A DNA stretch of 64,000 nt, from positions 62,124,001 to 62,188,000 of the forward strand of contig CM059430.1 of assembly GCA_030390025.1 (NCBI GenBank), written 5' to 3'. Made by a program: the position numbers and the translations under genes. Shown here one piece after another: positions 2,706 through 55,298 of this stretch; position 1 is the first letter of the stretch, and each line of letters opens with the position of its first letter. Origin of the DNA: Squalus acanthias. Its lineage: Eukaryota. Below the pieces are notes generated by a model, which saw nothing but the letters and a program-made list of their open reading frames with translations, ran no database searches and had not been told where the DNA came from.

Positions 2706-3464
2706 GGGGGCGAGTCATGTGCCGGGTGAGTACGCGTTGTGTACTTACCCGTAAGGCATCCTGAAGTGTCAGTTTCCTGCATGCACTGCGCATGCGTGGG
2801 AAACCGGAACTTCCGGTCTCGGGAAAGGAGGGGTTGAGAGGTGAACCGCGTGCGCGGTAGAGGCTGCGTGCACGCAGCGAACTTCGTTTTTTTTCAGGTT
2901 TCTCCGGGAAGGTAAGTATTGAAGAAACTGCGCTTTTAAAATGGAGGCGCAAGACCCGTTTTCAACAAGGTAAGTGGTTAATTAATTACAATGTTAATAA
3001 TTTTTCAACAGGTTTATCTTTTTTACTTACTTTAAAGAAAGGTAAGTTTATTTTTAGCACTTTTAAAAAGTATTTTAATTTTTTCAAAAATTTAAATTTT
3101 TGTTTAAAGTAGTTAATTTATTTAACTTATATTTATTTTAAAAATGTGATGGCTTTTTAAAAAAAATATTTGAAGTTTAGGTGTTGTTTTGGGGCCGATT
3201 TCAATTCATAGATTTGAAAGGTCTTCCTGTCAAATCTATGAATGAAAGATGGTCGGCTGCCATTGGATTTCCATGGCCCACGTGATCCCAGGGAACGCAT
3301 CGCACTAACTATGCCCCTGGGATACACAAGCATGCGCCCCGGAAGCTGCAGGAGGCCCAGGAGCTGAAGTCCCCATGAGCCCAGAGGTCAACGGCAGGCG
3401 CGGTAGGTAGGTGCGCGCGGGATCCTTGCACCCACAGGAAGCCAGGGAGACTAATTTCTGGGCC
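2706..3464. mobile_element. MITE (non-autonomous DNA transposon), same family as 4841-5551 but inverted; left end unclear
   Basis: Internal sequence matches the reverse complement of 4841-5551, including the hairpin at 3204-3243. Ends in AATTTCTGGGCC. Confidence 0.65.
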
Positions 3465-3732
3465 ATGATGTTCCTAAGGAGAATTATGCAAAATCTCCTC
3501 CATTATCGCCGCCCACCTGCAGTTCAAAGGTGCAACACACTGTAACAAGGGATAACATTAATTAACAGCATTCTTCTTTATATAATTAAAATTAAGTGGA
3601 AATTCAATATAAAAATTCTTCACTCTAGCTAAATTCTGTATATGTGTTAACTAATTGTCCAGAAATTACATTTCGGGATCCCGCATGACCAGCGTAACAT
3701 TGTCGGAGTACATGGAGACATTTCGTGGAAGG

Positions 3733-4479
3733 TGTAGCTTTTAAAAGCTCTTTATAGTAATTTTTACATGACTACAGAAACCACTCTGGCTAGAGGTATA
3801 TTGTGTATAAGTAAAACAGGTTTATTAAGCATTAAACATCCAGTATAAAGAAGTAATACTTAACAAGAAGATGGTCGCAGTTTGTTCATTGAACCCCGGC
3901 GTTCGTTCCAAGTGACTGTGGCAGCATCTCTGTAATTCTTGCTGTTTTATCTTGACTGAAGCTTCTCATCCTCTGGTATCGCACTGCTTTCAGTGTTCAA
4001 TAGGTGTTCCTTTATAACTCTTTTCCTTCATAATATATAGCAATTTGCAGCTGCTTGGGATATCTCACCATTCTGACCTTCAGAAGTACGATGTATGATT
4101 CTCTCCCCTTTTCTGCAGTGAGCTTTGAACATGATTACTTTTACATCTTTTGCCTTTCACATAGCCCATTACCTAGACTAGTCTGAAACTTCAGCGATTA
4201 GGTATGTTAGGTATTGAAAACCCTCTATCTTACTTTGAGACTTAATTAATGTTTCGTCCTCTGGTTTCTTGTTTGTAATATAACAGAAAATCTACACTAC
4301 CTCAGCACTATTCTTGCAGTTAACATAATTTTACCATCATGCTTTTATCTCAGCCGTTCGCCATTTTATACAGGCTTTTTAGGTTTTTAACATACAATTT
4401 CACATATTATAGTTGTTTAAAAATGGTTATAGAATCTTAATAATGTTTACTAAATCCTACAGGTACACTTTATTCTACA
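3733..4479 (-). repeat. 3' LTR
   Basis: TG...CA termini. About 90% identical to 12217-12974 (~18 differences in the first ~187 bp by hand). Minus-strand TATAAA at 4011-4016 and AATAAA at 3821-3826. Confidence 0.93.
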
Positions 4480-4482
4480 GAT

Positions 4483-4491
4483 CCCTACCTT
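4483..4491 (-). promoter_or_regulatory. Polypurine tract (PPT)
   Basis: Minus-strand AAGGTAGGG lies 3 nt upstream of the 3' LTR. Confidence 0.6.
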
Positions 4492-4840
4492 AAAGGCGAG
4501 GCATTTTGACGACCCCTCAAAACTAAAATCTTACATGTGGGTTTGTTCTCCCACGTTTATGTAATTCTAAGATATTCTGGGTTTTGATCATATTTAAACA
4601 CGATCGAATTTTGTACATTAGGTGTTTCAGGTGGCAGGTGCAAACTAGTAAGCATATCAGTACTACAAGTTGGGTGATGACCAGTACATGGGAAATTATC
4701 CTAATCCAAGGAGGAATTTCCATGTTAGTCCCTATGTTGTATTATTAGTCCTAACAATTTTTGTCTCCCTACCTATGGGTTACATATATCAAATACACTA
4801 TCATTACAAGTTGGAGAATTACCAGAGCATGTGAAACAAT

Positions 4841-5551
4841 GGGGCAGAAATTCGGCTCTCCGGCTTCCCGCGGTTGCAAGGATCGCGCTCGTACTTACCT
4901 AGCGCGCCTGCCGTTGTCCTTTGGGCCCGCATGGAATTCGGCTCCTGGGCCTCCTGCAGCTGCCGGCGCGCAGTGCTTGCGTATCCCAGGGGCGCAGTTA
5001 GCTGGAAGCGTCCCCTGGGATCACGTGGGCCATGGAGAGCCAATCGGAGCAGGGAATCTTCATTCATAGATTTTGACAGGAGGACCTGTCAAATCTATGA
5101 ATAGAGATCGGCCCCAAAACCTCACTAAAATTTCAAATACATTTTCTTTAAAAATCACATTTTCAAAATAACTATAATTACATAATTTTTGAAAAAATTC
5201 ATTACACTTTTTAACGGTGCTAAAAATAAACTTTCCTTTCTTTAAAGTATGTAAAAAAGATGAACCTGTCGAAAAAAATTTAAATTATATTTCATTCACC
5301 ACTTACCTTGTTAAAAGCAGGCCTTACGCTTCCTTTTTTCCTGCACAGCTTCTCCGTACTTACCCTCACGAAGAAACCTGAAAGAAACCCGAAGTTCGCT
5401 GCGTGCGCGCTGCCTCTCCGGCGCACGCGTTGGACCTCTGAAACCCTTCCTTCAGGGGAACGGAAGTGCATGCGCGAAACCGGCACTTTCGCTGTTTCTA
5501 CGGGTGAGTACACAGCGCGTACTCAACCGTGGAGACCCGAATTTTTGGCCC
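4841..5551. mobile_element. MITE (Harbinger-like), nested in the ERV env
   Basis: 21-bp TIRs GGGGCAGAAATTCGGCTCTCC / GGAGACCCGAATTTTTGGCCC (3 mismatches), 3-bp flanks AAT/ACT, non-coding interior. Confidence 0.8.
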
Positions 5552-5564
5552 ACTATGAACCTAT

Positions 5565-5866
5565 GGGCAGCATGGTGGCATAGTGGTTAGCACTGTTGCC
5601 TCACAGCGCCAGGGACCCGGGTGCGAATCCGGTCTCGGGTGACTGTCTGTGTGGAGTTTGCACATTCTCCCCATGTCTGCGTGGGTTTCCTCCAGTTTCC
5701 TCCCACAGTCCAAAGATGTGCGGGTTAGGTTGATTTGGCTATGATAAATTGACCCTTAGTGTTAGGGGGATTAAATACATGGGGTTACGGGGATAGGGTG
5801 GGCTATGTGTCGGTGCAGGCTAGATGGGCCGAAATGGCCTCTATCTGCACTGTGGGGAATCTGTGA
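5565..5866 (+). mobile_element. tRNA-derived V-SINE (HE1-like), nested in the ERV env
   Basis: A box TGGCATAGTGG, degenerate B box GGTGCGAATCC, V-domain CTGTGTGGAGTTTGCACATTCTCCCC...GGGTTTCCTCC...TCCCACAGTCCAAAGATGTG, CR1-like tail. Confidence 0.88.
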
Positions 5867-6344
5867 TGGTTGTGCTGATCTATTAAGCCTAATATCCCAC
5901 TAGTGTGAGTTGTCCCTTATGCTATCAATTTCAATATCTATTCTCGAATTGTCTTGTTTGAAAACATAAAAGTGCTTTAGGGAGGAGTTCATTCGCATCA
6001 CCGCTCACTGAAGCCCTCAGACAACAGGGGAATATATTACCCGAATTGTGCCACATAATTTTGCAGCTCATACTTGAGTATCTCATTTACTGTCAGTTTC
6101 ACTTGAGCATAGGTTTTGATATTGAGTAAAACGTTGATGGTTGATGGGACAGGTCCTGTTAGACCCGTAAAGCATGGCAGTTGCAGTAGTCGTGACACAG
6201 GAGGCACCATCAAAAACATCTCATAGTGGTACTGGTTTTTCCCACGCTCTGTTATCTACAAAACATAACTATTACAGTTACAAGTTATAATTAAGTCTTA
6301 CAATCATTTCACGTGACATTACAGTTTAACATCTAATCAACAAA

Positions 6345-8580
6345 TCATGAACTTAAAAGATTCTCCAGATCTCTTTCACTCGTATCCATCTTGTGGATAA
6401 TTCTTGCTGAACATGATTTCTCTTTAGCCCTCAATTGTCCCAATCCAAATTCTTCAACTTCAATTTCCATCCCTCTAACAGGTACCAGTGTGTTTAACTC
6501 TATTCTGAATGTTTCACTAATTAGATAGTTTCTCGGTGTAGTATGTGTCAATGCTTCAAAAGTTCTCTCCCTCTCCTTAGCCACATTAAACATTTCATGT
6601 CTTGCTGTTGTCAAGTAACTGAGTATGTCTGAGACCCGTTCTTCAGTGCAGATTCACCACGCATTTGCGGATGGTAATTGCTTCATATGTAACAAATCAC
6701 ATTTGCGCACTCATATCAGTATTTCAATATTGTGCCACACGTGTCCTCCAATACAAACCATTCTCGGGCTTTCAGGTATCTTGTCAAAAGATTGTAGTCG
6801 TCTGGAAATCTTTGCTCATCTTCCTCTGCAGTTTCCCGATGTCTTGGTTAGTGGTCATACTATAAAATTCAGTTTTCTTAAAAGGTTCATTGTAGGCAGA
6901 GACATAAATGTCTCCAAGAGAAAGTTATCAATTTACTATTCTTAGCTACACTTTCCTGACTTTCACTAGAAAGTTTTGAAAATTCCCAATCAGTAGTGTA
7001 ATTCTCCTGTTTCTATCTTACACCCTCAATCACGTCCTATCTCCATTTTAAACATCCCATTAATTACCATTCATATCTCATTCATGAGCCCTAGTGGAAC
7101 TTTACTGTCCAGTGCAATATTTAAGATTGAAAACATAGATAAAATGTTCTCACTTAGTCCAAGTTATTATCACTTTTTCTTTATCATTATTTTCGAGGAT
7201 CTTTTATTTTCCCAAAAGTAACCAAATATATAGTGCCTGAGTCCATTTTGTCATTTAAAAACTATCCCAAAATCCAATCAGCAGTACTGTTGAACTGATA
7301 CCGCAGGGTTCGGTGCGGGGGCCCCAGCTGTTTACATTATATATTCATGATTTGGACGAAGGGATTAATTGTAATATCACCAAATTTGCGGATGACACTA
7401 AATTGGGAGGCAGTGTGAACAATGAGGAGGATGCTAGGAGGCTACAGAGTGATTTGGACAGGTTGGGTGAATGGGCAAATGTATGGCAGATGAAGTACAA
7501 TGTGGATAAATGTGAGGTTATCCACTTTGGTGGTAAAAATAGGGAGGCAGACTATTACCTGAATGGTGGCAGATTAGGGAAAGGGGAGGTGCAACGAGAC
7601 CTGGGCGTCATGGTACATCAGTCACTGAAGGTGGGAAGGCAAGTGCAGCAGGCAGTCAAGAAAGCAAATGGCATGATGGCCTTCATAGCAAGGGGATTTG
7701 AGTACAGGAGTAGGGAGGTGATGCTACAGTTGTACAGGGCCTTGGTGAGGCCACACCTGGAGTATTGTGTGCAGTTTTGGTCTCCTAACTTGAGGAAGGA
7801 CATTCTTGCTATTGAGGGAGTGCAACGAATGTTCACTAGATTGATTCCTGGGATGGCCAGACTGACATATCAAGAAAGACTGGATGAACTGAACTTGTAT
7901 ACTCTGGAGTTCAGAAGAATGAGGGGGGATCTTATAGAGACGTTTAAAATCCTGACTGGCTTAGACAAATTCGATGCGGGCAGAATGTTTCCAATGTTAG
8001 GGAAAACTAAAACCAGGGGTCACAGTCTAAGGATAAAGGGGAAGCCATTTAAGTCTGAGATGAGGAGGAACTTCTTCACCCAGAGAGTGGTGAATCTGTG
8101 GAATTCTCTACCACAGAAGGTTGTTGAGGCCAGTTCGCTAAATATATTCAGAAGGGTATTAGATATAATACTCACAACTAGGGGGATCAAGGGGTATGGC
8201 GAGAAAGCAGGAATGGGGTACAGAGGTAGCCTGTTCAGCCATGAACGCATTGAATGGCGGTGCAGGCTCGAAGGACTGAATGGTCTACTCCTGCACCTAT
8301 TTTCTATGTTTCTATGTTTCTATGATAGGTTTTGTCAATGTTCAATTTAATTTCTGTCCAATTTATCTTATCAATTCCAAGTTCAGAAACAAGTGATTTC
8401 CAGGCTAGGTGGCTTAGACAGTGTTTTAACATTAGAGACAGAAGTGCTGCAATCAGTTTACAAGGTAACTTTCATATAACAAATGAAAGAAGAGAATCCA
8501 TTGTGACTCTGCTTAAGAGCCCAAGGGGTTAATTTATCAAATCATAATCTTCCTTCTGTCACTGTGGGGAAATATTAACT
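6345..8580 (-). pseudogene. Decayed ORF of unknown function inside the ERV, split by a CR1 insertion
   Basis: The frame continues across the CR1 junction (...INWTEIKLNIDKTYQFNSTADWILG...) and ends in ORF 6345-6614. It has scattered stops and frameshifts and no recognisable motif. Confidence 0.45.
7301..8324 (+). mobile_element. CR1 LINE, 5'-truncated, young (open RT C-terminal ORF 7313-8350)
   Basis: PQGSV.GP, FADDTK, RPHLEYCVQFWSP and RRNFFTQRVV motifs; (TTTCTATG)n tail; probable TSD TGATA at 7296-7300 and 8323-8327. Confidence 0.95.
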
Positions 8581-9630
8581 TAAAAGTAAGAAACTTAAAT
8601 TTAATAATGTCCAATATCTTTAAATTTCATTCAGCAATACTAAAGTTGTTGCTTGGTGAACTTAAACAGCTGTCAGTGGAAAGGGTTAACTCCTTTGCAG
8701 GTTTTAAGACGGCGGAGCGAAACATTGTCAGGTGCACACGATTGTGTCACTTCACGTAAATTTAAAAAATCTTCCCCGATCGAGAAAGACAGTTGTGTTT
8801 TCACACTTTAACTAAACACGAACAGAACAGATAAAACAAAACAAAATAGCACATGCTTGCAGAAAACAGTAAATTGTGTCATATTTCTTATTGTCCTTTC
8901 TTCAGATGCCTTTCCAAATGACTGTAAAAACATTGAATACAACTGGAGAAAAATTAGTTTTTCACATTTAAACAAATTAAATCAAACTGCCTTGGAAATT
9001 TCACCATAGTAACTGTGACTCCAAGGTTAAATTTTAGACTGACCCTTAAACTTTTGTTGAACAATTTTTTTGTTATTCTCCTCAGTTTTTGCACATCAGC
9101 TTAACTTAACTTGTAGTTCAAAGTTTCCTTTTTTAATTCTGGGTGCACATTCTTATTCACACATTCTTAAACTCCCAAAATCCAAGACAAGACTAAAGTT
9201 TTTTAATGATTTGTTTTACACAGAGAAGTGGGTGGAGCTGAAACACACACAACAGACAGTCTTCTAAAGACAGACTTTTCTGACAAAAGGAATACTGTAA
9301 CTTCTTAAACATTTATAGTTAGGAAAACTTTCACACTTTAACACATACTTTCACACAAACTGAAATTCCAGAATTTTTTTTAAGGTTCCTTAACTCAGCA
9401 ATCTTGTGTTTTATTTGTCTCGGCACAGATGTTAATAACTTCCATGTCGGTAAAACTTTAGGTTTCTCTCTCTTTTTTTCTTTTTTTAAATCGGCGTCTC
9501 AGCAACTTAGGGGTTACTTGAGTTCTAGTTAGGGCACCAACTGGTTGCTCAATAAATGCGAACTGTCCAGCGAGGTTTTCTCCATGTCACTGCTGACATA
9601 GGCTATGGCGGCTGTTGTAGGAGGAGGTGG

Positions 9631-10140
9631 TCAGGGAGGATATAATTCTCCCTCAGACGGAGGTAGGGAATGTGTCGGCAGTGTTATCTGCTGAGGCTTC
9701 TTTATAGCTAACACTGAGTGGGGGTCTGGAATTTGCCCTATATCTCCCCGTTTAGTCTCAACCCAAAAACAGTTCTGATTGTAATCTATAATGGCTGTCG
9801 TTCCCCGTAGGGTGTCATTGACAAGTATTCCCATTCCGCTGTTTATACACATATATAACGGATCAGTGATTTTTATGGGGAAGGCCTCAAGGGAAATACT
9901 AACTTCCTCTTCTGGGTATGCTGGTGCCTGTGCGCCGGTGAATCCTGTTTTTACAAAGCTATTTTTGGCTATTTCAAGCTGGCTTTCCGGGTCTGGGGAA
10001 TGCAGGATTGTAACAGATGAACCGGTGTCTATTAATATAGTCTGCTGTCGGCCCCCAGGCAGCAAAGCTGAGACTACCGGTCGACCATGGCCACTTCGTC
10101 TGAAATCCACTTCAGACCAGGCTGATGGGGCCGTATCCCG
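9631..10140 (-). pseudogene. pro: Retroviral aspartic protease (pol 5' end; RT absent)
   Basis: ILIDTGSSVTIL catalytic motif and GILVND (GxLGxD-like). In frame with gag after a TGA. Confidence 0.88.
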
Positions 10141-12066
10141 TCATAATGGGCCGTTGGGTTGTTGGGGCAATGGTGGGGGTGGGAATGGCGAACTCATAGT
10201 TGGAGCCACGGGGCACCCCGGCATCTGGGTCGATGCAAAAGTTTGCATAATACATGACTTTTTCTCCATACATGAACCTAGGGCATCTATTTTACTTTCC
10301 ATTGGATCGGGTGAATGGGACGGACCATATCGCGAGTAATTATTATTATTCCTCCCACATCCAGAGCCTGTCTGTCTAGGACCTCGGCAATCCTTTGCAA
10401 AGTGTCCCACCTTTCCGCAGTTATAATATATCAAGGGTTGCTTACGGGGTGGTGACGATGGGAAGGCCTGGGGTCCCTCAACTACATGCACTGGCGACTC
10501 TGCTGTTGGTACCTGAATCTGAGTTTTAGCGTAGGCGTTAGCATCTATTAAAAGATCTGTCCATTGCGAGTTGGGGCTGACAGTGTGCCCTAAGGCTGCT
10601 CGCAGTGAGGCCTCAATATTCTTCAAGTATATTTTCTTAAATGCTGCCTCATTCTTCCCGTTTAAGACATTATCATTGGGCGTGCCTCCATCATCTTATA
10701 AACAGTGTACAACTGATCCCCGAATGCAGCAGGGGTCTCATGAGACCCTTGTTGAGACTGGTTTAATTTCTGAACCAGATCAATAGTGTCCAAGCCCAGA
10801 GCTGTTTGTATAGTTGTGATTAAGTTATTCAGGAGGTGCCCCACATTAAAGACCATGACCATGACCAAGAGCAGACTGGTCAGTAGTTCTGGGGTTAAGG
10901 CAGACAGTATTAAATTTTTCATGTCACTGTCTTCAAGATTAGGATGGTAATTCCGGAACCCCACTATACGTTGCCTTAGCTCTATGGGGCATGTTCGTGG
11001 GTGAACTGGTCCGAATTGCAGGACACATGCCTATAGTTCTGCATAGTTCAGGGGCTGGGATTGTTCATAAGTACCCGCCCATAGCATTCCTGGGTGGGCT
11101 GCCGCTGGTTCTGCTCCTGCTTGTGCCTGGTCTACTTCAACAGCTGGTGGTGCGTTAGGAGTCACCTGGGTGCGAGTCAGAACATTAACTGGGGCTTTAA
11201 AGGGTGCAGGCTCGTCCACTGAGGTTTTTATGATTTTGTTATCAGCATAGGCTGGGGGCCTCTCAGTCAGATCGATGATGACATACGAAACGGGGGACAT
11301 TTGGGAAGGGTGTAGTAAGGGAGGATATAGTTCTCCTATGAACCCTTGGCATTGTTTATCATAACTCGCGGGGGCTCTACTTCCGTGACTGCCGCTATTG
11401 CAGCCCGTTGTTTACACAGCTGGTTTTCCAACTGTTGTATAGTAATATGACACTGCTTGTGGTTCGACACTCTTTGCGGGTACTGAAGAGCCTCTCTTAG
11501 GTCTCTTCATGAATCATTTAATTGTCTGGTAAGACGGTCATTGTCTTTTGTTAAGGAGGTTACCTGACATCTAGCCTCATCAAGATTCTCAATTGCAGCG
11601 CCAGCGTGAACTGCATTAATACTCTGTTGCTGTATTATTGCGGTCGAAGCACCGACCAGGCACTGACGAACTTCATTTTTACTTTTTAACTGTACAACCT
11701 CTTTTTCCAAGGTTGACTTCTCGCCGGTTAAAGTTTTTGTTATCTCCGTTAACGTTAGATTCTCTTCTATCAGCCGTAGCTTGGCTTTTTCTAATTTATC
11801 TAACTTGGTTTTATTATTCTCCATCTCTGGAAGGGTCTCTTTACTTTCTCTACAGAATCCAATGCCGCATAGGCCATTAGCTGCACTGCACTATCTGACT
11901 TCCATTTCTTCTCCTTAACTTGTTTCTCAATGGAAACAACAACGTCCTCAAAGGATACTCTCTTATCCTTTGTTAGACATGCTACTAGTAACGTCTGTAA
12001 CTGTACATCCTTGCACTTCATCATTAACTTCGTTTTAAAGTCTACAAAAACATTCTCACTCGACAT
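10141..12066 (-). pseudogene. gag: gag (N-terminal coiled coil, Pro-rich region, capsid-like segment, zinc knuckle), frameshifted
   Basis: Consecutive minus-strand ORFs: 11800-12150 (ATG 12066), 11507-11824 (heptads LDKLEKAKLRLIEENLTL), 11031-11300, 10662-10964 and 10141-10626 with YYNCGKVGHFAKDC (first Cys lost). Confidence 0.85.
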
Positions 12067-12195
12067 TCTGCTGTACGTTAAAGAGACCCTAACTTTTAGA
12101 TAACCTAACTTTCCACAAGGGTTTTCATAGAAAAACATAGAAAAATCCAAGCGCCTGCCTTATGCACAATAGGTCTCGTTTCAGTTAATAGTCAG

Positions 12196-12213
12196 GCCCC
12201 ACGTTGGGCACCA
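12196..12213 (-). promoter_or_regulatory. Primer-binding site for tRNA-Lys(CUU)
   Basis: TGGTGCCCAACGTGGGGC versus the canonical Lys1,2 PBS TGGCGCCCAACGTGGGGC (1 mismatch, G:U-compatible). Lies 3 nt from the 5' LTR. Confidence 0.9.
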
Positions 12214-12216
12214 ATC

Positions 12217-12974
12217 TGTAGCTTTTAAAAGCTCCTTATAATAATTTGTCCGGGACTACACAAATCACTCTGGGTGCAGTTATATTGTGTATGAGTAAAA
12301 CAGGTTTATTAAGCATTAAACATCCAGTACAAAGAAGTAATACTTAACAAGAAGATAGTCATAGTTTGTTCATTGAACCCCGGCGTTCCTTCCAAGTGAC
12401 TGTGGTACAGTCTCTTTAACTCTTGCTGTGTTCTGTTGACGGTGGCTTCTTATCCTTTGGTTTTGCGCCGCTTTCAGTGTTCAACAGCAGTTCCTTTATA
12501 CTTTTTTTTCCTTCAAAATACATAGCAATTTTCAGCTGCTTGGGCTATCTCACCATTCTGACCTTCACAAGTAAGGTCTATGATTCCCTCCCCTTTTCTG
12601 CTGTGAGCTTTGAGTATGAGAACTTTTACATCTTTTGCCTTTCCCATAGCCCGTTATCTAGACTGGTCTGAAACTACAGCGATAAAAGATGTTAGGTATT
12701 GAAAACCCTCTATCTTACTTTGAGACTTAATTAATGTTTTTTCCTCTTGTTTCTGTTTTTATTATAACAGAAAATCTACACTACCTCAGCACTATTCTTG
12801 CAGTTAACATAATGTTGGCTTAATTTTGCGATCATGCTTTGGTCTCAGCCATTCGCCATTTTATACAGGATTTTTAGGATTTTAACATACAATTTCACAT
12901 ATTATCGTTATTTACAAATGGTTATAGAAACTTAATAATGTTTACTAAATCCTACAGATACACTCTATCTTACA
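12217..12974 (-). repeat. 5' LTR
   Basis: Direct repeat of 3733-4479, adjacent to the PBS; TATAAA at 12495-12500 and AATAAA at 12305-12310 on the minus strand. Confidence 0.93.
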
Positions 12975-13539
12975 AAGGGATCTGACCAATTTCACTGCAG
13001 TAGCAGTGCAGGATAAAAAAAAATAAAGCGCCAGTATTTAGAAGTACACACCTGCTGTTTGATCTAGATTGTGTATAATGTCGATAGATATAAAGAATGG
13101 ATCTGATATAGCGTCTTCAGGCGAAGCCATTGTACATTCTAGATGTTAAGAAATGTTACAGGGCAAATACGACGTTTAGTTGCGGTTGAATGTGACCTTT
13201 ACGCGTATGCGGCGCTTTGCAGGCTTTTGCAAAGAACAGAGCTAAATTTAAATACTTGAACTGCTGCTGTGTGGAGGTGAATTAATGAGCCACATTCTTC
13301 ATTTAGCTGGAAAACGTGATGCGCTCGTGTCACTATTTCCGAACATGTTAAATTACTGCAAAAACCACACGGTCAAAAGCTTCGCTATTTCCTTACATTT
13401 CATCAGACTACGTGATAAATCGAACATACAGACACTTCACGCTGCTATATCTGAATTGCTTATTATTCCGGAATCGGGTTATTAAATTAATCCTTACCCC
13501 AATTATATATTCTCCAATTTGGAAACAGTTGGCCGATAA

Positions 13540-42395: not shown

Positions 42396-42760
42396 AAACA
42401 GTTCCATGTATTCAATTTAAATACACAGGATGTAAAAGTAAATCTGGTAGAATGGATCAATTTGGTGCGTAATTTTATTTTATTTGGCAAAAATTTTACG
42501 AGGAATGATCTTTCAACTTTTGAACAGTTCGCACATCAACCTCCCGTTGCGGATTTCTTCAGCGAGATATTCTCCCTCCTTCACTTACAAACCATCTGGA
42601 ATATTTTTATTTAGTTCCCATTGATGTGACACTGAGAGTAAATACATTTCACATGTACCCTATATTCTCGGGGTTGAACAGTTCCCCTGCTACATGTCCA
42701 ATAAGTAATTACAGGTTGGAGCAGATCCCCGCTCCCCGCTGTAAAGGTATCCAATCTTAC

Positions 42761-43057
42761 CTTGACTAACGGTGTAGCTGACATTGGCGGGCAGCAGAAG
42801 AGAGACATGAGATACCAGACATGTATAAACAACTCCGCTCTGGGCAGGCTGTGCTTCTTCCAACGAGCTGGAAACCTTAAACAGTCCCTCTGCATTCCTG
42901 TTTTTCACAGTTGCTATTCCAGTCAGAATTTCGACACCATCTCTTCGCCAGGAGATTTCTAAATGCTCCGGGTAAAAGGCAGTCGTTTTACACTCGAGTT
43001 TTAGAGAAGTCGCTGAAATTCCTTCAACAGGAGCGATTTTCAGGGGAGCTGGGGAAA
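42761..43057 (-). CDS. Exon 3: Ig C1-set domain
   Basis: 297 nt, phase 1/1; LECKTTAFYPEHLEISWRRDG...NAEGLFKVSSSL...YTCLVSHVSL; ttttaaag acceptor and G|GTAAGA donor. Confidence 0.93.
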
Positions 43058-44634
43058 CTTTAAAAGAAAAAATGTTTTTTTTTAATTTAAAGGAACACAT
43101 TCTCATTTGCCTCTCTCGTTATGCGGTTACAGTCCTACTGTCACAACAGTTATCCGCGCTGTCGTTTTTTTTAAACTTCGAGTTTGCATCTATTTTATAA
43201 TTTGTTTTACGGCGCACAGCAAAATGACGGGATGTATTGGAACGTACGCAAAGAGGGTGAATCTCCCAGGGCTGCTAACATGCAGGGAGGCACGCGTCAC
43301 TGTTCTGAATGGAGTATCAGATCCTGGTGCGGGATTGTTCTTGGCAGCAGTGACCCCGAGTGAGGTTCCTGTCCGACTATATCGGAGAGAGCGCAACCCA
43401 GTCTGCACGAACAGTGAAATCGCTTCTCGTTATTGATTGATAATCTTTGGAGCATTAAACATTTTGTGTGTTTATTTAAAAATTGGTCGCTTTTTAGATA
43501 TTTCATATATTGCAAACATATTTTATATAAACGGTGAATATTGAGAAGAAGAATTCTTACCAATATATTGAAATATATCTGATGTCTACACAGATTGCAG
43601 ACAGGATGCTGTTATATCGATAGATTAATATTCGTGCATTACAGTTGCTAACTCAGCATTTCAGTGTCTGTGGTGGAGATTTCAGGTCGTGCAGCTTTCA
43701 TGAAATGAACTTTCCCCAGACCGCGAACCGAGGGCTGGAATTTTTTTCACGTCATGAAAGGGCTATATTGGTAATGATGTATCTCTGTGTAGATCACAAC
43801 ATCCATACAGATGAGGGAATACGAATAGGAACTCCTAACTCAGAGTGCATGTCTTATATAATTCCAGGTTTTTTGTCCTTCCCCACGTCTATTCGGTCTG
43901 TTGAACAACTTTTGCCTGAAAAGATTCTGCTTATATCAGTCCTACAGTCGTCTTTTACTAATGTGAACCTTTGTCCGCTAGAGCTACAGTCACTGTTTAG
44001 CTGAAAGTAGAGTCCCTTATTCGGTTTGCATTGTTGTGTCAGTTTATTACAAACAATCTCTGGAAAATCTTTTCTTTAAATGTTTACTTTTCCGATTTTG
44101 TAGTAATAGCAAACATTTAAATCAGTGGTATTATTAACTTGGAAAGTTTTTTTTAGCGTTTATTCCCAGCAGCACCGTATTGACTGCACCACCAAAGCTC
44201 AGAATTCCTCCGTTCTTTACCACTGATCTGTTTAGGTATAATATGTAATGCAGCAGGATTTCCGTGGAGGAGGAGGACGAAAGTTTTCACTTAATCTGCT
44301 GCCGTAACTTCAGACTGGGATTGGTAGAATGGAAATGGAAATCATGAATTGCAAAGACGGGCGCCCAGGCGTTTATAGCAATTTCGGCGATAATTTGCCC
44401 GTACTTTACAGGTTGTGAGTGTATGAAAGAAAGTCCAATTAGCGTAAGACAGATGTTCAAAAAGGAGCATTGGGTTTCTATACTCTCCTGCAAGGTCTGG
44501 GACTTGGGGTGGAATCCAGCATTGAGGGTAAGACCAACACTTGCCTTTCAATGGGTTATAAGATTCCATTGTGAAATGAGTTTGGCAGTCTCAAAAAAGT
44601 TCTCAATGAAAGCAAGTGCAGAGCCTAAACTGCG

Positions 44635-44855
44635 GATACAGGAACAGGAGGAGGCCATTTAGCCCCTCGAGTCTGCTCCGCCATTCAATTAGATGATGGC
44701 TAATCTGTACCTCAAATCCATTTGTCCACTTAACTCCATATCCTTTGATACCCCCACCTAACAAAAATCTATCCACCTCAATCTTGGAAGCTCCAATTGT
44801 CCCATCATCCACAGCCATTTCGGAGAGAGAATTCCAGATTTTGGCCAATTCTGTA
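44635..44855 (-). mobile_element. CR1 3' end fragment (intronic)
   Basis: KIWNSLSE...IDRFLLGGGIKGYG-like sequence plus 3' UTR. Confidence 0.8.
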
Positions 44856-45450
44856 CAGAAAGTATTAGATTTGCAATTTCAAGTAGTGGGACCAAAATGT
44901 TCCCTGGTGTGTGCAATAACCATGATTGTAGCAGGACATTTTTCTGTTGCGTTTGTGATGAAGGCACCTTGTTGGGGCGGCGTAGCCGGCCTTTAATGAA
45001 GTATAAAATACATGACCTCGGAGGTGTTAAAATTGTTCGCATTGTCGCTCCTTGGCAACGCTATTTTGGTGAGAAGGAATTTGGCCATCTAATCCCAGTT
45101 ATTAATTTGAAGCCAAGATTTAAACGTTTATACCATTTCAGTATCTTGCCTCCTTAATAATTGTAACTGCACTTCCAAAAGAACTCATTGGATGCAAAGC
45201 ACTTTGGAATGTCATGCGGACAATGAAGGGGTGAAATTGATCTGGGGCAGTAGCGCAAACCGGGCGCTAGCGAATCGGCCAGCCGTTGTACACCGGGGTG
45301 AATGGAAAAGAAAATCGGGAGAAGTGTAAAATCAATTTGCTATCACCTGGTTTTCGTCAAGTGATAAAATTCAAATTACCCCCACTATTGAGTTTTACGT
45401 ATATCGCACACTGCTGAGAATCTCCCACTCACCGGCACAATGACACTTAC

Positions 45451-45756
45451 CGTACACAGTAAGCTGGGAGCCACTTCCATCTCCAATAGATTTTTGTTGA
45501 TATTTTACTTTGCAGTAATACACTCCGGCGTCGGCGACACTCGCATTCACGAGATCAAATGAATCACTTCCCTTTTTTACATTAAATTGCTTTCTGCTAT
45601 CTGGCTCGAGAAACGTCTCATCGCCCCGTCTCCGCCAATAAACATCGGGGGCATCTTGAAACATGGGAAATGTGCAAAACATGGAAACATTTGTACTCCT
45701 GGCAACCTTAATATATTTCGGGAATTGAAACACTTTGATCGAAGGTACTTCAGCGG
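45451..45756 (-). CDS. Exon 2: Ig V-type domain with germline-fused J-like strand
   Basis: 306 nt, phase 1/1; MFC, VYW, DAGVYYC, GSGSQLTVY; ttttctgatag acceptor and G|GTAAGT donor. Confidence 0.93.
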
Positions 45757-46019
45757 CTATCAGAAAATAAACAAAAATGCTGACATAATAGTTTGCATAC
45801 TTTAGGAAAGGAACAAATATAATTCCTTAGAAATTTTTTAAAAATCAAGAAAATTAACCACATTAATAACACTATAAGAAAAACGGAAGAAATGTGCACA
45901 AAATATGACAAATTGTTTTAACATTAGCTTTTTTTCGATAAACATGGAGCGGTGAGATAAACAAACACACCTCTGTAAAGAACTCCCACCAAAGATATGC
46001 AGAAAAGCGCGGAGCTCAC

Positions 46020-48576: not shown

Positions 48577-48958
48577 AAGAAGTCTTACTGCAATTATATA
48601 GGGGGAAAAATTAGGTCGCGCCCCGTTTGGGGCGCAAATATCGTCTGGACGCAAAAATTAGCACCTGGCGCTAATTATCGCCACTGACTGGAAACTTCAC
48701 TTTTACCGGCCCGGGAGGTGAGTGGAGCACTAAATCAGGCCCTGCACACCTGTCTTAAGGCGCAAAGGCCGAGCAGTGAGGTGCTAACTCAGCGCGCGAG
48801 CGCAGCGCAGGTGCTGCCAGTTAGCGAGGGAACACAGACACACTGACGCCGGCCAGTTCTTAAAGCGGGGGGGCCAACTTGCTCCCCAGCCACACCCTGC
48901 TCATTGCAGCCTTGAATCTCGACCTGGAGAGACCTGTGAATCCATTTTGCTGCCAAGG

Positions 48959-50778
48959 ATGGAGAGGGTGAGAGAACGAGCTCAGCGCTTCACCGAGCGG
49001 GCCTTGGATGCTCTGGTTGGCGTGGTGGAGCGCAGAAGATCTATACTCTTCCCTGAGAGTGGCAGGAGGCCTTTGCCACGCGAGTACAGAAGAGTGTGGA
49101 GGGAGGTGGCTCAGAGCGTCTCCTCCAGGGGCATGGTGCCCAGGACCCATGTTCAATGCCGCAAAAAGTTCAACGACCTCACTCGGGTCGTCAGGGTGAG
49201 TGGCTTTTTCTCAATACCTCTCCATCCCTCCATCTCAACCTCACTCTATGGCCAGAGGGTCTTAAAACCCCAATGCACAACACTCATCCAACACCTATGG
49301 CCCATTCATTAAACACACACAGACATTCCACACTTTGCATACAGTAAGGGTTATTCACCTATGGGAGGCATATCAGGCAAGACCATGGCTGCATACAGTA
49401 AGGGCTATTCACCTATGGGAGGCACATCAGGCAAGACCATGGCTGTATATTTACTCAGATGCTGTCCTTTTACTTGCAGGCCAACATGGCGCATAATAGG
49501 AGACAACAGCAACGGACAGGTGGAGGGCGGCCTCAGCTGCAACGCCTCAGCGATCTTGAGGAGCGCGTCCACAGGATTGTGGCAAGCCGGGTGATCGGTC
49601 CCGTCGCCACTGGAGACGCCGACCCCGTTCTGGACAGCAATGGTAAGGTCATCACCTTTTTGTCCTCTGTCCTTCCACTTGTCCCTCACAACACCAGCCT
49701 TTGACACTTTCAATCCAACTTGCTAACTCGCTGCACTTATTCCTCCCTTACTGCCACCCTGTCCTCACGCTAAAGCCACTCTTGTACCTCCCTGCTTTCA
49801 GATGGTGATTCACCAGCTGAGGAGACGGGCCCTGAAGCTGCCAGTGGGAGTGAAGCTGCAGCCGAGGAGGAAGAGGAAGCCGGAGCATCAGTGCCACCCT
49901 CTCCCGAGGAAGCCCATGCCCACACTGGGAACACGCCTTCCCTGGAGGGGAGCAGGGGGGAAGGGTCTGATGAGGGTGAAGCTCCAGGACCCAGCGGGCT
50001 GCAGCAACGCCATGGGGGTAGGGAAGAACGGGGGCCTTCTCCCCAGAGGGAGAGTATGCCAGCGACTCCTACTGCAATGGACGCAGAGGAGGAGCGGCTG
50101 ATCGCAGAAATGAACACCCAGGCGGTGGGCATGCACACTGAGCTCATGGGTGCAGTGGGAAGGGTGCCCGAATGCATTGAGTCACTGGCAAGGAGTGTGG
50201 AGCACTTCGCTGTAGCACAGGCGGATGCCACACTAAAGCTTAGTGCTGCAATTCAGTCACTGACTGCCGTGATCCCATCTCTGACTGCTCTCATGCAGAC
50301 TCAGATTGAGGCCACGCAAGCACTGACTGCTGCCAACCTCGATGGTTCGTTCACATGTCCCCGGGGCTCTCACCGTGCCGCAGCAGGCCAGCAATCTGTG
50401 CTCCAGCAGATTGCTCCGGATGCTGAAGTGCTGCCCCTTGGGAGTGCCAGTGTGTCGGTCGAGCAGGGAGTTACTGTCCTCTCTCACAATGACAGCATTC
50501 CTGCTGCCAACACTGTCACTTCTCCACTGCACTTGCCACCGCCTGTAGGACAGACTGCTGCCGCCCATGCAGAGTTGGTGCAGTCTGCAGCCGGGCCCTC
50601 CAGGCCCAGAACTGTTCGAGGCCGTCCTTCAGGGGCATCTGCAGTGTCAGGGTCTGACAATCAGCAGCCTTCCACCAGCCTTGCTGCAGCCACTGAGGTC
50701 CCATTACGGAGGAGCAGTAGGGTTAGAAGGGGGGAAGTGCGCAAGGGAAGGATATCACCCTCGAACGGCAAAAAGTAG
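48959..50778 (+). CDS. Harbinger Myb/SANT-like DNA-binding protein, 3 exons (48959-49195, 49480-49642, 49802-50778), 458 aa, intact
   Basis: RERAQRFTERALDALV...WREVAQSVSS...PRTHVQCRKKFNDL and RTGGG motifs; GT-AG introns; the spliced 1377 nt are open to TAG. Confidence 0.85.
49337..49444. repeat. 54-bp tandem duplication in Myb intron 1
   Basis: GCATACAGTAAGGG(T/C)TATTCACCTATGGGAGGCA(T/C)ATCAGGCAAGACCATGGCT x2. Confidence 0.9.
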
Positions 50779-51089
50779 GAGGTGTGACAAAATGCCGGTC
50801 ATTTTTTTATTAAAGGCCGAGGTTCGTGGTCCAACTTTTGTCTAGTGTTTTGGACATTATCTCCAGGTTGTGACAACCAGTTATGTTAATGACTGTTTTT
50901 TGTGTTTATTTCTATGAGTTTTTCATGAGGAAATGACACACACAGAGTTAGTAAAATAAATAAGTTTTTGTATTCAAAATATACATGTTTGGTGTTTGGA
51001 ATCATTGGTGCCTTGGCCAGCTTAGGGGTTGCGTGCTGGGTTCATTGATGTTGTTAGCAATGGCAGAAGCCATTTCCACAGCAGGGGCC

Positions 51090-52249
51090 CTAGAAGCGGC
51101 TTGCTATCAGCCGTTGACGGACGGCCCTTGCAGTTTCACAATAGTGGGCCGCCCTCCCGCCTGGTGCTGCTGAATATCATCCTCCTCGTCCTCTTCCTCC
51201 TCTTCCTCCTCCTCCTCTGGTGGTGCTCCAAGGCCTGGTGGCATTGGCTGGGTCCTGACGATTGCCATGTTATGCAACATGCAGCACACAATTACGAAGT
51301 TGGATACTCGCTCATGCGAGTACTGCAGGGCTCCTCCAGAATGGTCGAGACAGCGGAACCGTTGCTTCAGCACGCCGATTGTGCGCTCAATGATGTTCCT
51401 GGTAGCTTGATGGCTCTCGTTGTACCGCAGCTCAGCAGGGATGTTGGGCGTACGGAGCGGTGTCATCAGCCAGGTGCTCAATGGATACCCCTTGTCCCCG
51501 AGAAGCCAACCAACTGGCTGATGCGGTGCCTCGAAAAGTTCTGCCACAGTAGTCTGGCGCAGGATGAAAGCATCGTGGCAGCTGCCAGGATAGTGGGCAT
51601 TGACAGCGAGTATCAGCTGTCTGTGGTCACAGACCAACTGAACATTCTAGGAATGGGACCCCTTTCTGTTCCGGAAATCCTCGGCATTCTCATGTGGAGC
51701 ACGCAAAGCCACATGCGTGCAGTCAATGGCGCCCTGCACCATGGGGAAGCCCGCTATCCTCGCAAAGCCCAGAGCACGGTCACGCTGCTTGTATGGGGTC
51801 ATGGGGAAAGAGATGAACTCTCGTCTCCTTTTAAAGAGGGCATTTGTGACCTGCCGGATGCAGCAATGCACCGCGAACTGGGAGATATTGGCGAGGTCCC
51901 CAGCAGCAGCTTGAAATGAGCCAGTAGCATAGAAATTGAGAGCCACTGTGACCTTCACTGCCACCGACAGAGACGTCCTGGACCTCAGTTGAGGCTGCAG
52001 ATCTGGCTGCAGCAGGTGGCAGAGCTCAGTGACCACCTCCTTGCTGAATCGCAGCCTTCGCAAACACAGCTCCTCAGACAAATGAATGTAGGAGAGCTGT
52101 TCACGATATACCCTGGGAGGGTAAGCTCTCCTCTACAGACGCCTGTTGGCCCTCCTCCGTCTGGCCATCATTGCCACTCTCTCTCTGCGTCTCTGTGTCC
52201 TCCGATTCAGCTGGAGCAGGACGACGCCCCAATTCAGTGCAGCCCCCAT
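51090..52249 (-). pseudogene. Harbinger DDE transposase (HARBI1-like) with 2 nonsense codons and a likely C-terminal frameshift
   Basis: [48 protein letters not shown]; in-frame TAG at 52133-52135 and 51647-51649. Confidence 0.92.
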
Positions 52250-52928
52250 AGTCTCTTTGCAAGCAAAGTAATGAAGGACAGCAACCAAAGCACCAGCGAA
52301 GTTAGGATCAGTAGGCAAAACTACCTCACAAAGCGTTGACTTAATGCAGAAGTCTCTCTTTCTCTCTCTCCGAATCTCTCTCTCTCTCTCTCAGAACGTG
52401 TGGGGCAAAAATGTCAACCACAGAAAAAGACAGGAAGAGGCCCCCTTTAAATAGCGCCCCCCCCCCCAGCCCCACAGCGATTGATAGCGTTCCAGTCTTC
52501 CGGCCGTTGGATGCGCCAGGCGGTAAGGCAGGGGGCGCCACTCAATTTCCGCTCCGGGGCGCCACAAGGGCGTTGCGCCATGGAATGACGTCACAATCTG
52601 CGCGCGCAGGTGGTCGCAGCGGTAAAGTTTAGCGCCGCCGCACAATGTCTAGTTAAGTTCCCGAGCGGCGCAAACATCGCTGCGCCCGGGCGCTAGCTGC
52701 TTTGCGCCCCATTAGCGCCCTCTTAAGGCGCTAACGGGAGGCGCAACCAACTGAATTTTTCCCCCTATAAAGGCCACACCTGAAGTACTGTGTTCAGTTT
52801 TGTTGTCCTTTCCTAAGGAAGGATATAATTGCCTTACGGGGAGCGCAATGAAAGTTCACCAGACTAATTCCTGGGATGGGGGTTTGTCTTATGATGAGAG
52901 ATTGAGGAGACTAGGCCTAAAATAACAA

Positions 52929-55298
52929 GGGGTAGAAATTCATTATAGCCCAGGAATGGGCACAAACTTCTGAAAACTTTGAGATTGAGCGCCAAGAACT
53001 AATGCAACTCGCTGCATGCTAACTTAAGTGTTAGCGCTCGAAGAAAGGACTAGAATGCTACCTCAAGCGTTAATGACCTGGCTCTGTGGCATTAGACTCA
53101 ATGTGCTAAGCAATTGCATGTGCAGTCAAATCGCTAGTCATCATTGCCACAGGCTCTTTCCAGTTCAATCATGCTGCAAAACTTCATTCTCAGCATTGCT
53201 GGTTCTGCAGCTTTCTCAGCAAGCAGCAGAAGGAGAAGGAGAAGGAACTGGACCGCTGAAGGAGGTGTCATTATGGCAGATTAACGGTCTAGAGAGAGAG
53301 CTCGGAGATTCTTAGACCAAGGATTGGAGGCCTTGATCCTCGCTGTGGAAAGACAGAGGGTGGTGCTATACCAGTCAAGTGTCAGGATGCCCTCGCCGCA
53401 AGTATTCAGTGCCATGTGGAGGGAGATAACCCAGCAGGTCTTGGGCAGCACTGTGGTCCCCAGGACCCAAACACAGTGCAGGAAGAAATTTAACGACCTC
53501 ACTCGGGTCGTCAGGGTGAGTCAATGCTTCAACAAATGCTACATCCCACCATCTGAACCTCAGTCTGCACAAACTGCCCAAAGCACTGCACACCCAGCAC
53601 TCACACACCAACCGTCTGCAACTCCCAACACTCACACCTGCATCTCACAGCTTGGACACAATGACAGCTACTCAACTATGGCAGGCACATCTCCCAAACA
53701 CATTGCTCCACACTACTCACACACTTTCCTTTCTCATGCAGGCCAAGGTGGCTCACAACAGGATAGAGCAGGAGTGCACAGGCGGGAGGCAACCTGACAC
53801 CCAACCACTTCTGAGCTGGTGGAAAGAGTGCTCAAATCATCGGGCGCCAGGTGGTGGACGTCGTGGCCACCGGCGATGTTGACCCCCTTGGGGACATCAA
53901 CGGTATGTTTATCCCTACTCCTGCTTGTCACATCTCACTTCACACTCACCCCACAAGCCTTTCCCACTTTCCAAGCTAATCATGCTGTATGCATGCCTTT
54001 CTCCCTTCCTGATCACTCCCCTCACCTTAAACCGACTCTTGGGGTTGCGGAGGGGTGTCATGAGCCAGGTGGAGATCAGTTAGTCCTGTCTCCGACCATC
54101 CATCCATGAGCTTGATATGATGGCTGGAAGAGTGCAGGTACACCAGTCCTGCAAAGGATGAAGGCATTGTGGCTGCTGCCAGGATAGCGGGCATTCACAT
54201 TGAGGATTCGCTGCCTGTGGTCGCACACCAACTGCACATTAATTAATTGTTTTCCTTTGCGGTAATGGAAGAGCTCAGGATTGTTATGCGGTGCCCACAA
54301 AGCCACATGGATGCAGTAAATGGTGCTATCCCGGCAAAGCCACATGCACGTTCATCCGGCTTCTCTCTGGTGATGGGGAAGGAAATGTAGTCCCTTTTCG
54401 GACTGTAGAGAGCCTCTGTGACCTCCCGAATGCAAGGATGGATTTTTGCGATACCTTCTGTTACAGACTGGAATGAACCGCTGGTGAACAAATTGAGGGT
54501 TACGGTGACGTTGGCTGCCACTAAATAAGCCGTGGTCGACCTGATCTGAGGCTCGAGGTCTGGTTGCAGGAGGTAGCAGAGTTTGGTGAGCACATCCTGA
54601 AGTGAGGCCTTCTAATGCACGGCTCCTCACTTAATTGGAGGTAGGAGAAGGGCTCTCTAGAATACCCTCCGAGGGTAAGACCTCTTGTTGAGAGCCCTGA
54701 TGGCCCACCTCCTCCCTCTGGCCACATCTTGCAATCTTTCTCGCTGCCTCTACTCCCTCCCCAGTAGATCCTGGAGGACGAGATCGACTACCAGTACAGC
54801 CCCCATTAATGTAACGATGTGTTGCACTTTGAAATTTTGTCACAATAAATTTAACAAATTTTTACTTGACACATTACTCCTGATACTAAAGTACCTTTAA
54901 ATGACTGAATTAAACTCTTGCACAATTGCAAACTGACAAGGAAGCAGTGAAACAGTACTAACCTGACAGCTGTGACTCATCAATTTAAATAACGACACCG
55001 GAGTCGCCAACAGCCTAACACGCCTCCTCTTCCTGTCATTGTTGGGGCGAGGAGCTAAGGCATGGGGTGATAATCAATTTGGCAGATAGGGTGCTCAGTG
55101 AGCGTTGCACGCTCATTAGCATCATGATCTGCATGGCGCTAAAGCCCCAGGTGCTAACTGTTAGCAGCGGCGCTAAGGGGCGACTGGATTTGGTGTGCGG
55201 TGCTGGATCCACCTCACCCCGGCGCTACTTCATTAGCCTCCAGTTAGCGCCCGTGACAGGTGCAAACGGGAGAGGCTGAACAACTAAATTTCTCCCCC
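52929..55298. mobile_element. Second Harbinger, internally deleted and decayed
   Basis: TIR GGGGTAGAAATT / AATTTCTCCCCC with flanks CAA/CTA; Myb exons 1-2 (PRTQTQCRKKFNDL, 53273-53902) and transposase N-terminal two-thirds ([17 protein letters not shown], ~54040-54800 minus); the 3' ends of both genes are deleted. Confidence 0.88.

Follow-up and report, generated by a model that had tools for sequence, protein, structure and literature searches.

The window analysed here is a 64,000-nucleotide stretch of the Squalus acanthias genome (GenBank assembly GCA_030390025.1, contig CM059430.1, positions 62,124,001 to 62,188,000 of the forward strand), and all coordinates below refer to it. Positions 3733 to 12974 hold a real provirus, read on the minus strand, that carries gag, a protease and the remains of env and lacks reverse transcriptase (RT) as well as RNase H and integrase. 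We regard it as a decayed provirus that is likely to descend from a deep-branching true retrovirus of the SnRV-like grade (SnRV, snakehead retrovirus). Its parts are, from the 5' end:

3733-12974, minus strand: whole provirus, about 9.2 kb, of which about 2 kb are later insertions
12975..12978: copy of the target-site duplication (TSD) next to the 5' long terminal repeat (LTR), 4 bp
12217..12974, minus strand: 5' LTR, 758 bp, TG...CA; TATAAA at 12500 and AATAAA at 12310 fit a U3-R-U5 order on this strand
12196..12213, minus strand: primer-binding site (PBS) of tRNA-Lys1,2 type, 3 bases past the LTR end
10141..12066, minus strand: gag, with internal stops and spread over three frames; N-terminal region, coiled coil, proline-rich linker, capsid, one CCHC, stop
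~11850-11490, minus strand: gag coiled coil
~11080-10500, minus strand: gag capsid
10425-10384, minus strand: single gag CCHC knuckle (Pfam zf-CCHC, E 4.5e-6)
10143-10141, minus strand: gag stop, a UGA downstream of the knuckle
9661..10140, minus strand: aspartyl protease (DTG) and first residues of the protease-RT linker, in frame with the 3' end of gag
9507..9651, minus strand: diverged copy of the gag linker (of 11336-11155), at the expected RT start
8328..9506, minus strand: AT-rich spacer, by composition, without recognisable coding; its final ~150 bases may be the start of env
7301..8327, plus strand: nested long interspersed element (LINE) of CR1/L2 type, 3' part, with a 5-base direct repeat (RVT_1, E 6.4e-10); further copies lie in the window
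5871..7300, minus strand: ectodomain remnant in the env slot, assigned by position only
5565..5870, plus strand: nested tRNA-derived short interspersed element (SINE), limits uncertain
4839..5552: nested miniature inverted-repeat transposable element (MITE) with terminal inverted repeats; an inverted copy, 78% identical, lies at 2809-3466
4500..4840, minus strand: 3' end of env, two diverged segments coding for transmembrane (TM) stretches and a short tail
4480..4491, minus strand: short polypurine tract (PPT) and 3 bases ahead of the 3' LTR
3733..4479, minus strand: 3' LTR, 747 bp, TG...CA
3729..3732: TSD copy next to the 3' LTR, 4 bp

The same four bases (AAGG on the plus strand) flank the element on both sides, and the five-base flanks differ; two random flanks would share a 4-mer with a probability of about 0.004. 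The PBS matches the Lys1,2 PBS of a foamy virus locus (L082) at 17 of 18 bases. A preliminary description of the locus had named both the 4-bp TSD and the Lys1,2 PBS, and both stand. The three bases between the 5' LTR and the PBS (12216-12214) are complementary to the three between the purine run and the other LTR (4482-4480), and these triplets inside both LTR ends lengthen the terminal inverted repeat to eight bases. This arrangement suggests that integration may have trimmed three rather than two bases off each end; foamy loci, by contrast, have two bases on the PBS side of the LTR.

Aligned with each other, the LTRs show 661 matches and 85 mismatches, a divergence of 11.4% (Kimura two-parameter distance, K2P, 0.124), near the ~10% given in the preliminary description, which had offered great age or recombinant LTRs as its cause. 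The mismatches are not clearly clustered (heterogeneity p 0.05 with four bins, 0.22 with six) and the transition/transversion ratio of 0.93 is like that of other repeats of the window. Because both TSD copies are intact and clustering is not clear, the divergence is best read as a sign of age; recombinant LTRs as its main source were rejected on these grounds and on the ordinary transition/transversion ratio. At 2.2e-10 (PMC4422223), 5e-10 (PMC10699275) and 1e-9 (our assumption) substitutions per site per year, the K2P distance corresponds to 282, 124 or 62 million years (My), respectively. The provirus is old and probably inert.

Gag combines a long N-terminal coiled coil, whose heptad score was reached by none of 100 shuffled sequences, with a single zinc knuckle, as described before. 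Among nine reference capsids, the window capsid matched only that of a caecilian element contained in the database protein P0027 (z 6.2; E 6e-4), and Foldseek, given a single-sequence AlphaFold model of part of the capsid (pLDDT 46), returned no match at E 0.001. The gag stop is followed directly by the protease in the same frame. UGA-CGG is the context of a leaky stop. The RNA downstream of the gag stop folds no better than shuffled sequences (z 0.01), and an Rfam search gave no match.

The connection to other viruses runs through the protease, whose ESM features are those of aspartyl proteases, and weakly through the capsid. A phmmer search with the end of gag and the protease against 1.84 billion representative sequences returned 15 matches, 13 of them through the knuckle; the two borne by the protease are the Pol of Xenopus tropicalis (P0003), 33% identical over 126 amino acids (E 7.6e-8), and P0004. 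In a comparison with reference proteases, 31 of which could be excised from 35 candidates, P0003 reached 56 bits against 11.4 for the best lokiretrovirus, 9.9 for SnRV and under 1 for foamy viruses, and seven of the eight top scores fell to a set that includes frog and coelacanth Pols. The window protease also joins this set in the protease tree (91/86, unstarred, with the bootstrap unsettled). A word-index search with the protease found no relative among 532 candidates, and a PDB sequence search gave no significant match.

The frog and coelacanth set (Xenopus tropicalis with UniRef A0A803JYW4, Pyxicephalus, Aquarana, Rhinophrynus and Latimeria; P0003 and P0022-P0025) supplies the best protease matches, the linker into RT included, at 22-33% identity over full matches. 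It retains what the element has lost, namely RT, tether, RNase H and integrase, all present in P0003. Together with P0029, these proteins are apparently intact basal retroviral Pols of frogs and coelacanth that are annotated as GIN1- or NYNRIN-like. A search with P0003 returned 346 proteins, and frog and coelacanth Pols at 47-48% identity lead the best 120 of these 346. The RT of the caecilian element in P0027 belongs with the same set (51% identity to P0031, 47% to P0023 and P0025); the P0027 gene model itself fuses a gamma-type endogenous retrovirus (ERV) with a basal-grade gag-pol, probably as nested proviruses. An identity of P0003 with Loki-Xtr was rejected, as its RT differs from the Loki-Xtr RT in the supplement of PMC7947760. 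P0003 is likely one of the approximately nine SnRV-like copies reported for X. tropicalis (PMC4131045).

Beyond the protease, pol is gone. Similarity to the nearest full Pol stops at 9661, and no further Pol match for RT, RNase H or integrase was found in the element; the RVT_1 match at 7259-8347 belongs to the nested plus-strand LINE. The preliminary description was thus right that RT is missing. The position of pol is occupied by about 1 kb of non-coding DNA, the spacer, in which we found no Pfam match in three frames and no Pol match, and by the gag linker copy, which aligns to its source with a score of 73.5 compared with a maximum of 60 in 200 shuffles. In the second block of this alignment, six of the eight codon differences are synonymous and two are non-synonymous; in the first block, one is synonymous and 11 are non-synonymous, the blocks having been chosen post hoc, after the match was known. 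We read the linker copy as derived from a related virus rather than from a neutral duplication.

As the window element has no RT of its own, the RT trees cover its relatives found through the protease. They were built from subsets of the 113 RTs left after removal of near-duplicates (64 rows in a quick tree, 44 in a careful tree, and 30 in a careful tree with the connection domain), with SnRV, the lokiretrovirus L001 and foamy, lenti-, betaretroviral and Xen-1 genomes as references, the last four found by the PBS scan. We assigned the loki and gypsy labels of database proteins ourselves, going by grouping with L001 and by domain lists. L001 (10,252 bp) is a near-complete lokiretrovirus in a metagenome contig whose Env is positive for PF00523. 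P0036/L112 is SnRV: its RT start matches the SnRV row in the PMC7947760 supplement, and its length of 10,688 nt is the SnRV length given in PMC12193657. The RTs of the relatives belong to the retrovirus side, with support of 100/94 and 100/99, and to neither the gypsy nor the class I/II branch. Lokiretroviral RTs form a separate clade (100/99, 100/100), as do mammalian foamy RTs (100/100), and the relatives lie outside both in all three trees. Both careful trees exclude them from a starred set made up of SnRV, foamy and other retroviruses (97/92, 96/90) and show them as a grade without resolution. Their mean RT identity is 42.7% to SnRV, 36.6% to lokiretroviruses, 34.4% to foamy viruses and 33.1% to gypsy elements. 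Approximately unbiased (AU) tests rejected none of the groupings of the relatives' RT with SnRV (p 0.18), with lokiretroviruses (0.30) or with foamy viruses (0.18). With RT, tether, second RNase H and integrase, and a place in neither Ty3/Gypsy nor the epsilon/gamma clades, these relatives agree with the basal retrovirus-type provirus that had been proposed for the locus; the placement named there as its refutation did not turn up.

Searches beyond this set returned little. Viral-contig scans with P0003 and with alignment A1 found no relatives, 80 metagenome loci gave no match to the window frames at E 0.01, and sequence look-ups found no look-alike of the element. None of 21 listed sequencing runs contained half of its words (best share 0.27) and no RNA run was listed as containing them, which is uninformative on copy number, range and expression. 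Nothing on this ERV family was found in literature that left out most subscription journals.

The env slot is broken up and contains three nested insertions, which the preliminary description overlooked together with the gag linker copy in the place of pol and the second TM copy. Only the TM segments are secure here, and none of the comparisons assigned the Env to a type. They lie at 4840-4778 and 4699-4637 (hydropathy 2.28 and 2.75) and share 39 of 63 nucleotides (score 42, maximum 38.5 in 200 shuffles), so that the TM stretch described earlier is present in two diverged copies. Between LINE and SINE, no open frame exceeds 102 codons. The remnant matched nothing in Pfam (three frames), in PDB (three frames; immunoglobulin Fc rows at E 0.03 or worse were taken as chance) or among seven reference Envs, where a foamy TM scored best (z 2.5-3.4) without exceeding the top shuffle; an ESM Atlas search with the longest env open reading frame was uninformative. 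As controls, the loki, Xen-1 and foamy Envs match their Pfam families, and the SnRV Env matches none. So far as the broken frames allow, no minus frame of the env slot contains a CX6CC motif or anything like an immunosuppressive domain (ISD), in line with the earlier description. Its heptad-like segment in Env did not hold up, since 49, 57 and 88 of 100 shuffles scored as high in the three frames. Its (W)WDI motif is there as WDI; the codon before it is a stop, and the motif overlaps one copy of the 7-base direct repeat around the SINE and may be partly insertion sequence. An RNRR at 7014, a candidate furin site ~370 codons ahead of the TM, was left unused, as one such motif is expected by chance over this length of sequence. 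A search for relatives of the SnRV Env returned SnRV alone, and for a single-sequence AlphaFold model of its TM (pLDDT 44) Foldseek returned nothing at E 0.001; measles F, which ranked second (E 0.77), was not counted as evidence.

The nested SINE may be akin to the shark HE1 SINE. The MITE belongs to a family with copies at 4839-5552, 2809-3466 and 59019-59387, the latter two 78% and 71% identical to the nested copy; one copy stops about 270 bases from the 3' LTR.

Among known systems, SnRV shares most of this layout: a coiled-coil Gag, a single CCHC, pol in frame after the gag stop, and an Env that has neither CX6CC nor a Pfam Env family, as the env remnant of the element likewise shows no CX6CC or ISD. 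Its RT is also the nearest to the relatives' RT by identity among the named references. SnRV differs in that its PBS is not of Lys type and its pol is present, and its capsid and Env show no significant match to those of the window (z 0.5 and -0.4). By description rather than by sequence, chicken OVEX1 is also alike, with an SnRV-like coiled-coil Gag, a read-through pol and an Env-like open reading frame described without CWLC, CKS17 or CX6CC; unlike the element, it is described as having no knuckle and it retains pol (PMC2717909). The grouse TERV, again likened by description, is pol-less with a truncated TM as in the element, whereas its Gag is alpha-like (PMC2717909). Zebrafish BHIKHARI, grouped here with the lokiretroviruses, offers a further case, in which Bik-1 codes for Gag only. 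SnRV-like ERVs are the main ERV class of coelacanth (PMC4977317), occur in the elephant shark as CmiERV lineage I (PMC4422223), and form a clade, Huo, present in all vertebrate lineages (PMC6001957).

The preliminary description had taken the Lys PBS and the 4-bp TSD as foamy signs and had placed the element in a loki- or foamy-related lineage. These foamy- and loki-like traits are not diagnostic: lenti-, beta- and epsilon-like viruses carry this PBS as well, and SnRV shares the arrangement of Gag and of gag-pol. In the PBS scan, the Lys1,2 pattern appeared in lentiviruses, betaretroviruses, the epsilon-like Xen-1 and five of 80 metagenome loci, and 4-nt TSDs are also reported for gammaretroviruses and ERV1 (PMC5210030, PMC4299795). 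We give little credence to a foamy-like ERV of the fish or shark type (FLERV, clade Tu) in which a zinc knuckle was retained or acquired anew. Fish FLERVs usually have a Lys PBS and a 4-bp TSD (PMC5210030), neither of them exclusive to FLERVs or foamy viruses (PMC5210030, PMC4299795), a frog FLERV groups with shark FLERVs (PMC5512871), the top env score was that of a foamy TM, and the AU test leaves the grouping standing (p 0.18). The element nevertheless has the CCHC that foamy Gags, as described in PMC5210030, lack. Three extra bases stand between its purine run and TG where foamy viruses have a GGGTG PPT:LTR junction, and its pro continues the frame of gag directly after the stop, whereas foamy pol is expressed independently of gag. 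Its protease scores below 1 bit against foamy viruses, the relatives' RT is 34% identical to theirs, and no PF03408 match was obtained in the element, with the control L087 matching at 1607 bits. That the element might be a lokiretrovirus, the first from a cartilaginous fish, is highly improbable in our judgement. A coiled-coil N-terminus is shared with lokiretroviruses (PMC7947760, L001; bioRxiv 2024.03.25.586437), the env slot, at ~600 codons once its insertions are taken out, has room for a protein the size of F, the table of PMC7947760 shows no asterisk, a mark whose meaning we infer, for six chondrichthyan genomes that were screened, and the AU test gave p 0.30. Against this, the protease reaches at most 11.4 bits compared with 56 for P0003, and a loki clade supported at 100 excludes the relatives in three trees. 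No PF00523 match occurs in any env frame (control L001 at 1.2e-5), the frames being too broken for a firm negative, and neither the Env nor the capsid of L001 matches. An F-like Env is moreover not loki-specific, as the foamy Env shares the fold (PMC11468914). The genes that would show the CGIN1-like integrase and dual RNase H of lokiretroviruses are deleted from this copy. On the available sequence comparisons, both the loki and the foamy assignment are disfavoured.

An ordinary epsilon-like or class I fish ERV, or an env-bearing Ty3/Gypsy element, would also account for a 4-bp TSD and a knuckle, which are typical of ERV1 (PMC4299795), and both this PBS and an in-frame stop between gag and pol are found in Xen-1. 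We consider such an origin barely credible: neither TLV_coat nor the ISD and CX6CC of epsilon/gamma Envs was found in the element (control Xen-1 at 1.2e-11), its protease and capsid are unlike those of Xen-1, and the relatives, with their dual RNase H, belong to neither group, whereas Ty3/Gypsy elements have a single RNase H and P0003, the proxy for the lost pol, has tether, RNase H and a retrovirus-side RT. A further alternative is a lineage apart from the SnRV clade, lying between lokiretroviruses and all classified retroviruses and hitherto filed under 'SnRV-like'. It would fit both careful trees, which set the relatives outside the starred group of SnRV, foamy and other retroviruses. We hold it to be quite unlikely, since the grade has short branches and lacks resolution, the position of the root among retroviruses depends on the model, our trees do not reproduce the published ones (PMC7947760) with the references used there, and a grouping with SnRV is not rejected (AU p 0.18).

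Descent from the SnRV-like grade has its own difficulties. The element is tied to this grade by a protease match of 33%, unstarred in the tree, and protease and RT may have different parents; what we say of the element's RT is inferred from relatives found via the protease. These relatives form no clade with SnRV, as the starred set excludes them, and the AU tests reject none of the three groupings. The identity lead of SnRV over fish-type RTs is small (P0032, 41.5%), its capsid and Env do not significantly match those of the window, and its PBS is not Lys. In the coelacanth relative P0023, Gag ends with a glycine-arginine stretch and without a knuckle. The trees contain no RTs of ERV-L/ERV-S, ERV4, OVEX1 or labelled FLERVs from fish or sharks, and the family is known here from a single copy, from which its helper-dependent spread would have to be deduced.

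With these points weighed, the element works like an SnRV-type read-through retrovirus and is most likely a new member, now decayed, of this loosely defined deep group, which is already known. In its parent, tRNA-Lys1,2 would have served as the primer of reverse transcription and, as the layout suggests, read-through of the UGA beyond the knuckle would have yielded Gag-Pol; the parent would perhaps have entered cells through an Env without CX6CC or ISD. We lean slightly towards a loss of pol before integration, followed by integration with the aid of a helper, over a deletion after insertion. A template switch onto a co-packaged related genome would likely have removed pol, leaving behind the additional gag linker and, probably, the extra TM segment. 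The shortened copy may then have been reverse-transcribed and integrated with the enzymes of the helper, which would account for its intact ends and 4-bp duplication, and would afterwards have decayed for ~60-280 My, depending on the rate assumed, and received three transposon insertions.

Elsewhere in the window, V-set and C1-set immunoglobulin exons lie 30 kb away at 42690-45826 on the minus strand; the best PDB match of the C1 exon is UrIg2 (9dmx, E 2.4e-17), and the exons possibly belong to a UrIg-like immune gene. UrIg figures in two papers on the immunology of cartilaginous fish, which favours a chondrichthyan host without proving it. A GC-rich Harbinger-type transposon spans 48788-53797, with Myb/SANT open reading frames on the plus strand and a DDE_Tnp_4 transposase on the minus strand. 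The identical repeat at 61381-61680 and 62760-63059 (1379-base spacing) is a recent tandem duplication or an assembly artefact.

The locus itself is one more dead ERV, and pol-less ERVs as well as SnRV-like elements of sharks, frogs and coelacanth are already known. It also illustrates that foamy or loki viruses are not identified by a PBS of Lys type, a TSD of 4 bp, a Gag with a coiled coil and an Env lacking CX6CC. The locus is of value as a pointer to intact Pol genes of frogs and coelacanth that carry GIN1- or NYNRIN-like labels and stand at the base of the retrovirus tree here. This basal placement is the one point worth specialist attention; it bears on which retrovirus group branched first and can be tested with public sequences. 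A bolder view, which we think unlikely, would see in the element a chondrichthyan fossil more than 100 My old from a lineage distinct from the SnRV clade, placed with its intact frog and coelacanth relatives between lokiretroviruses and the whole of the classified retroviruses, among them the foamy viruses, and in a recombinant, helper-dependent form that RT screens miss. If such a distinct basal lineage were real, tRNA-Lys priming, read-through Gag-Pol and a single-knuckle coiled-coil Gag would become candidate ancestral traits of retroviruses.

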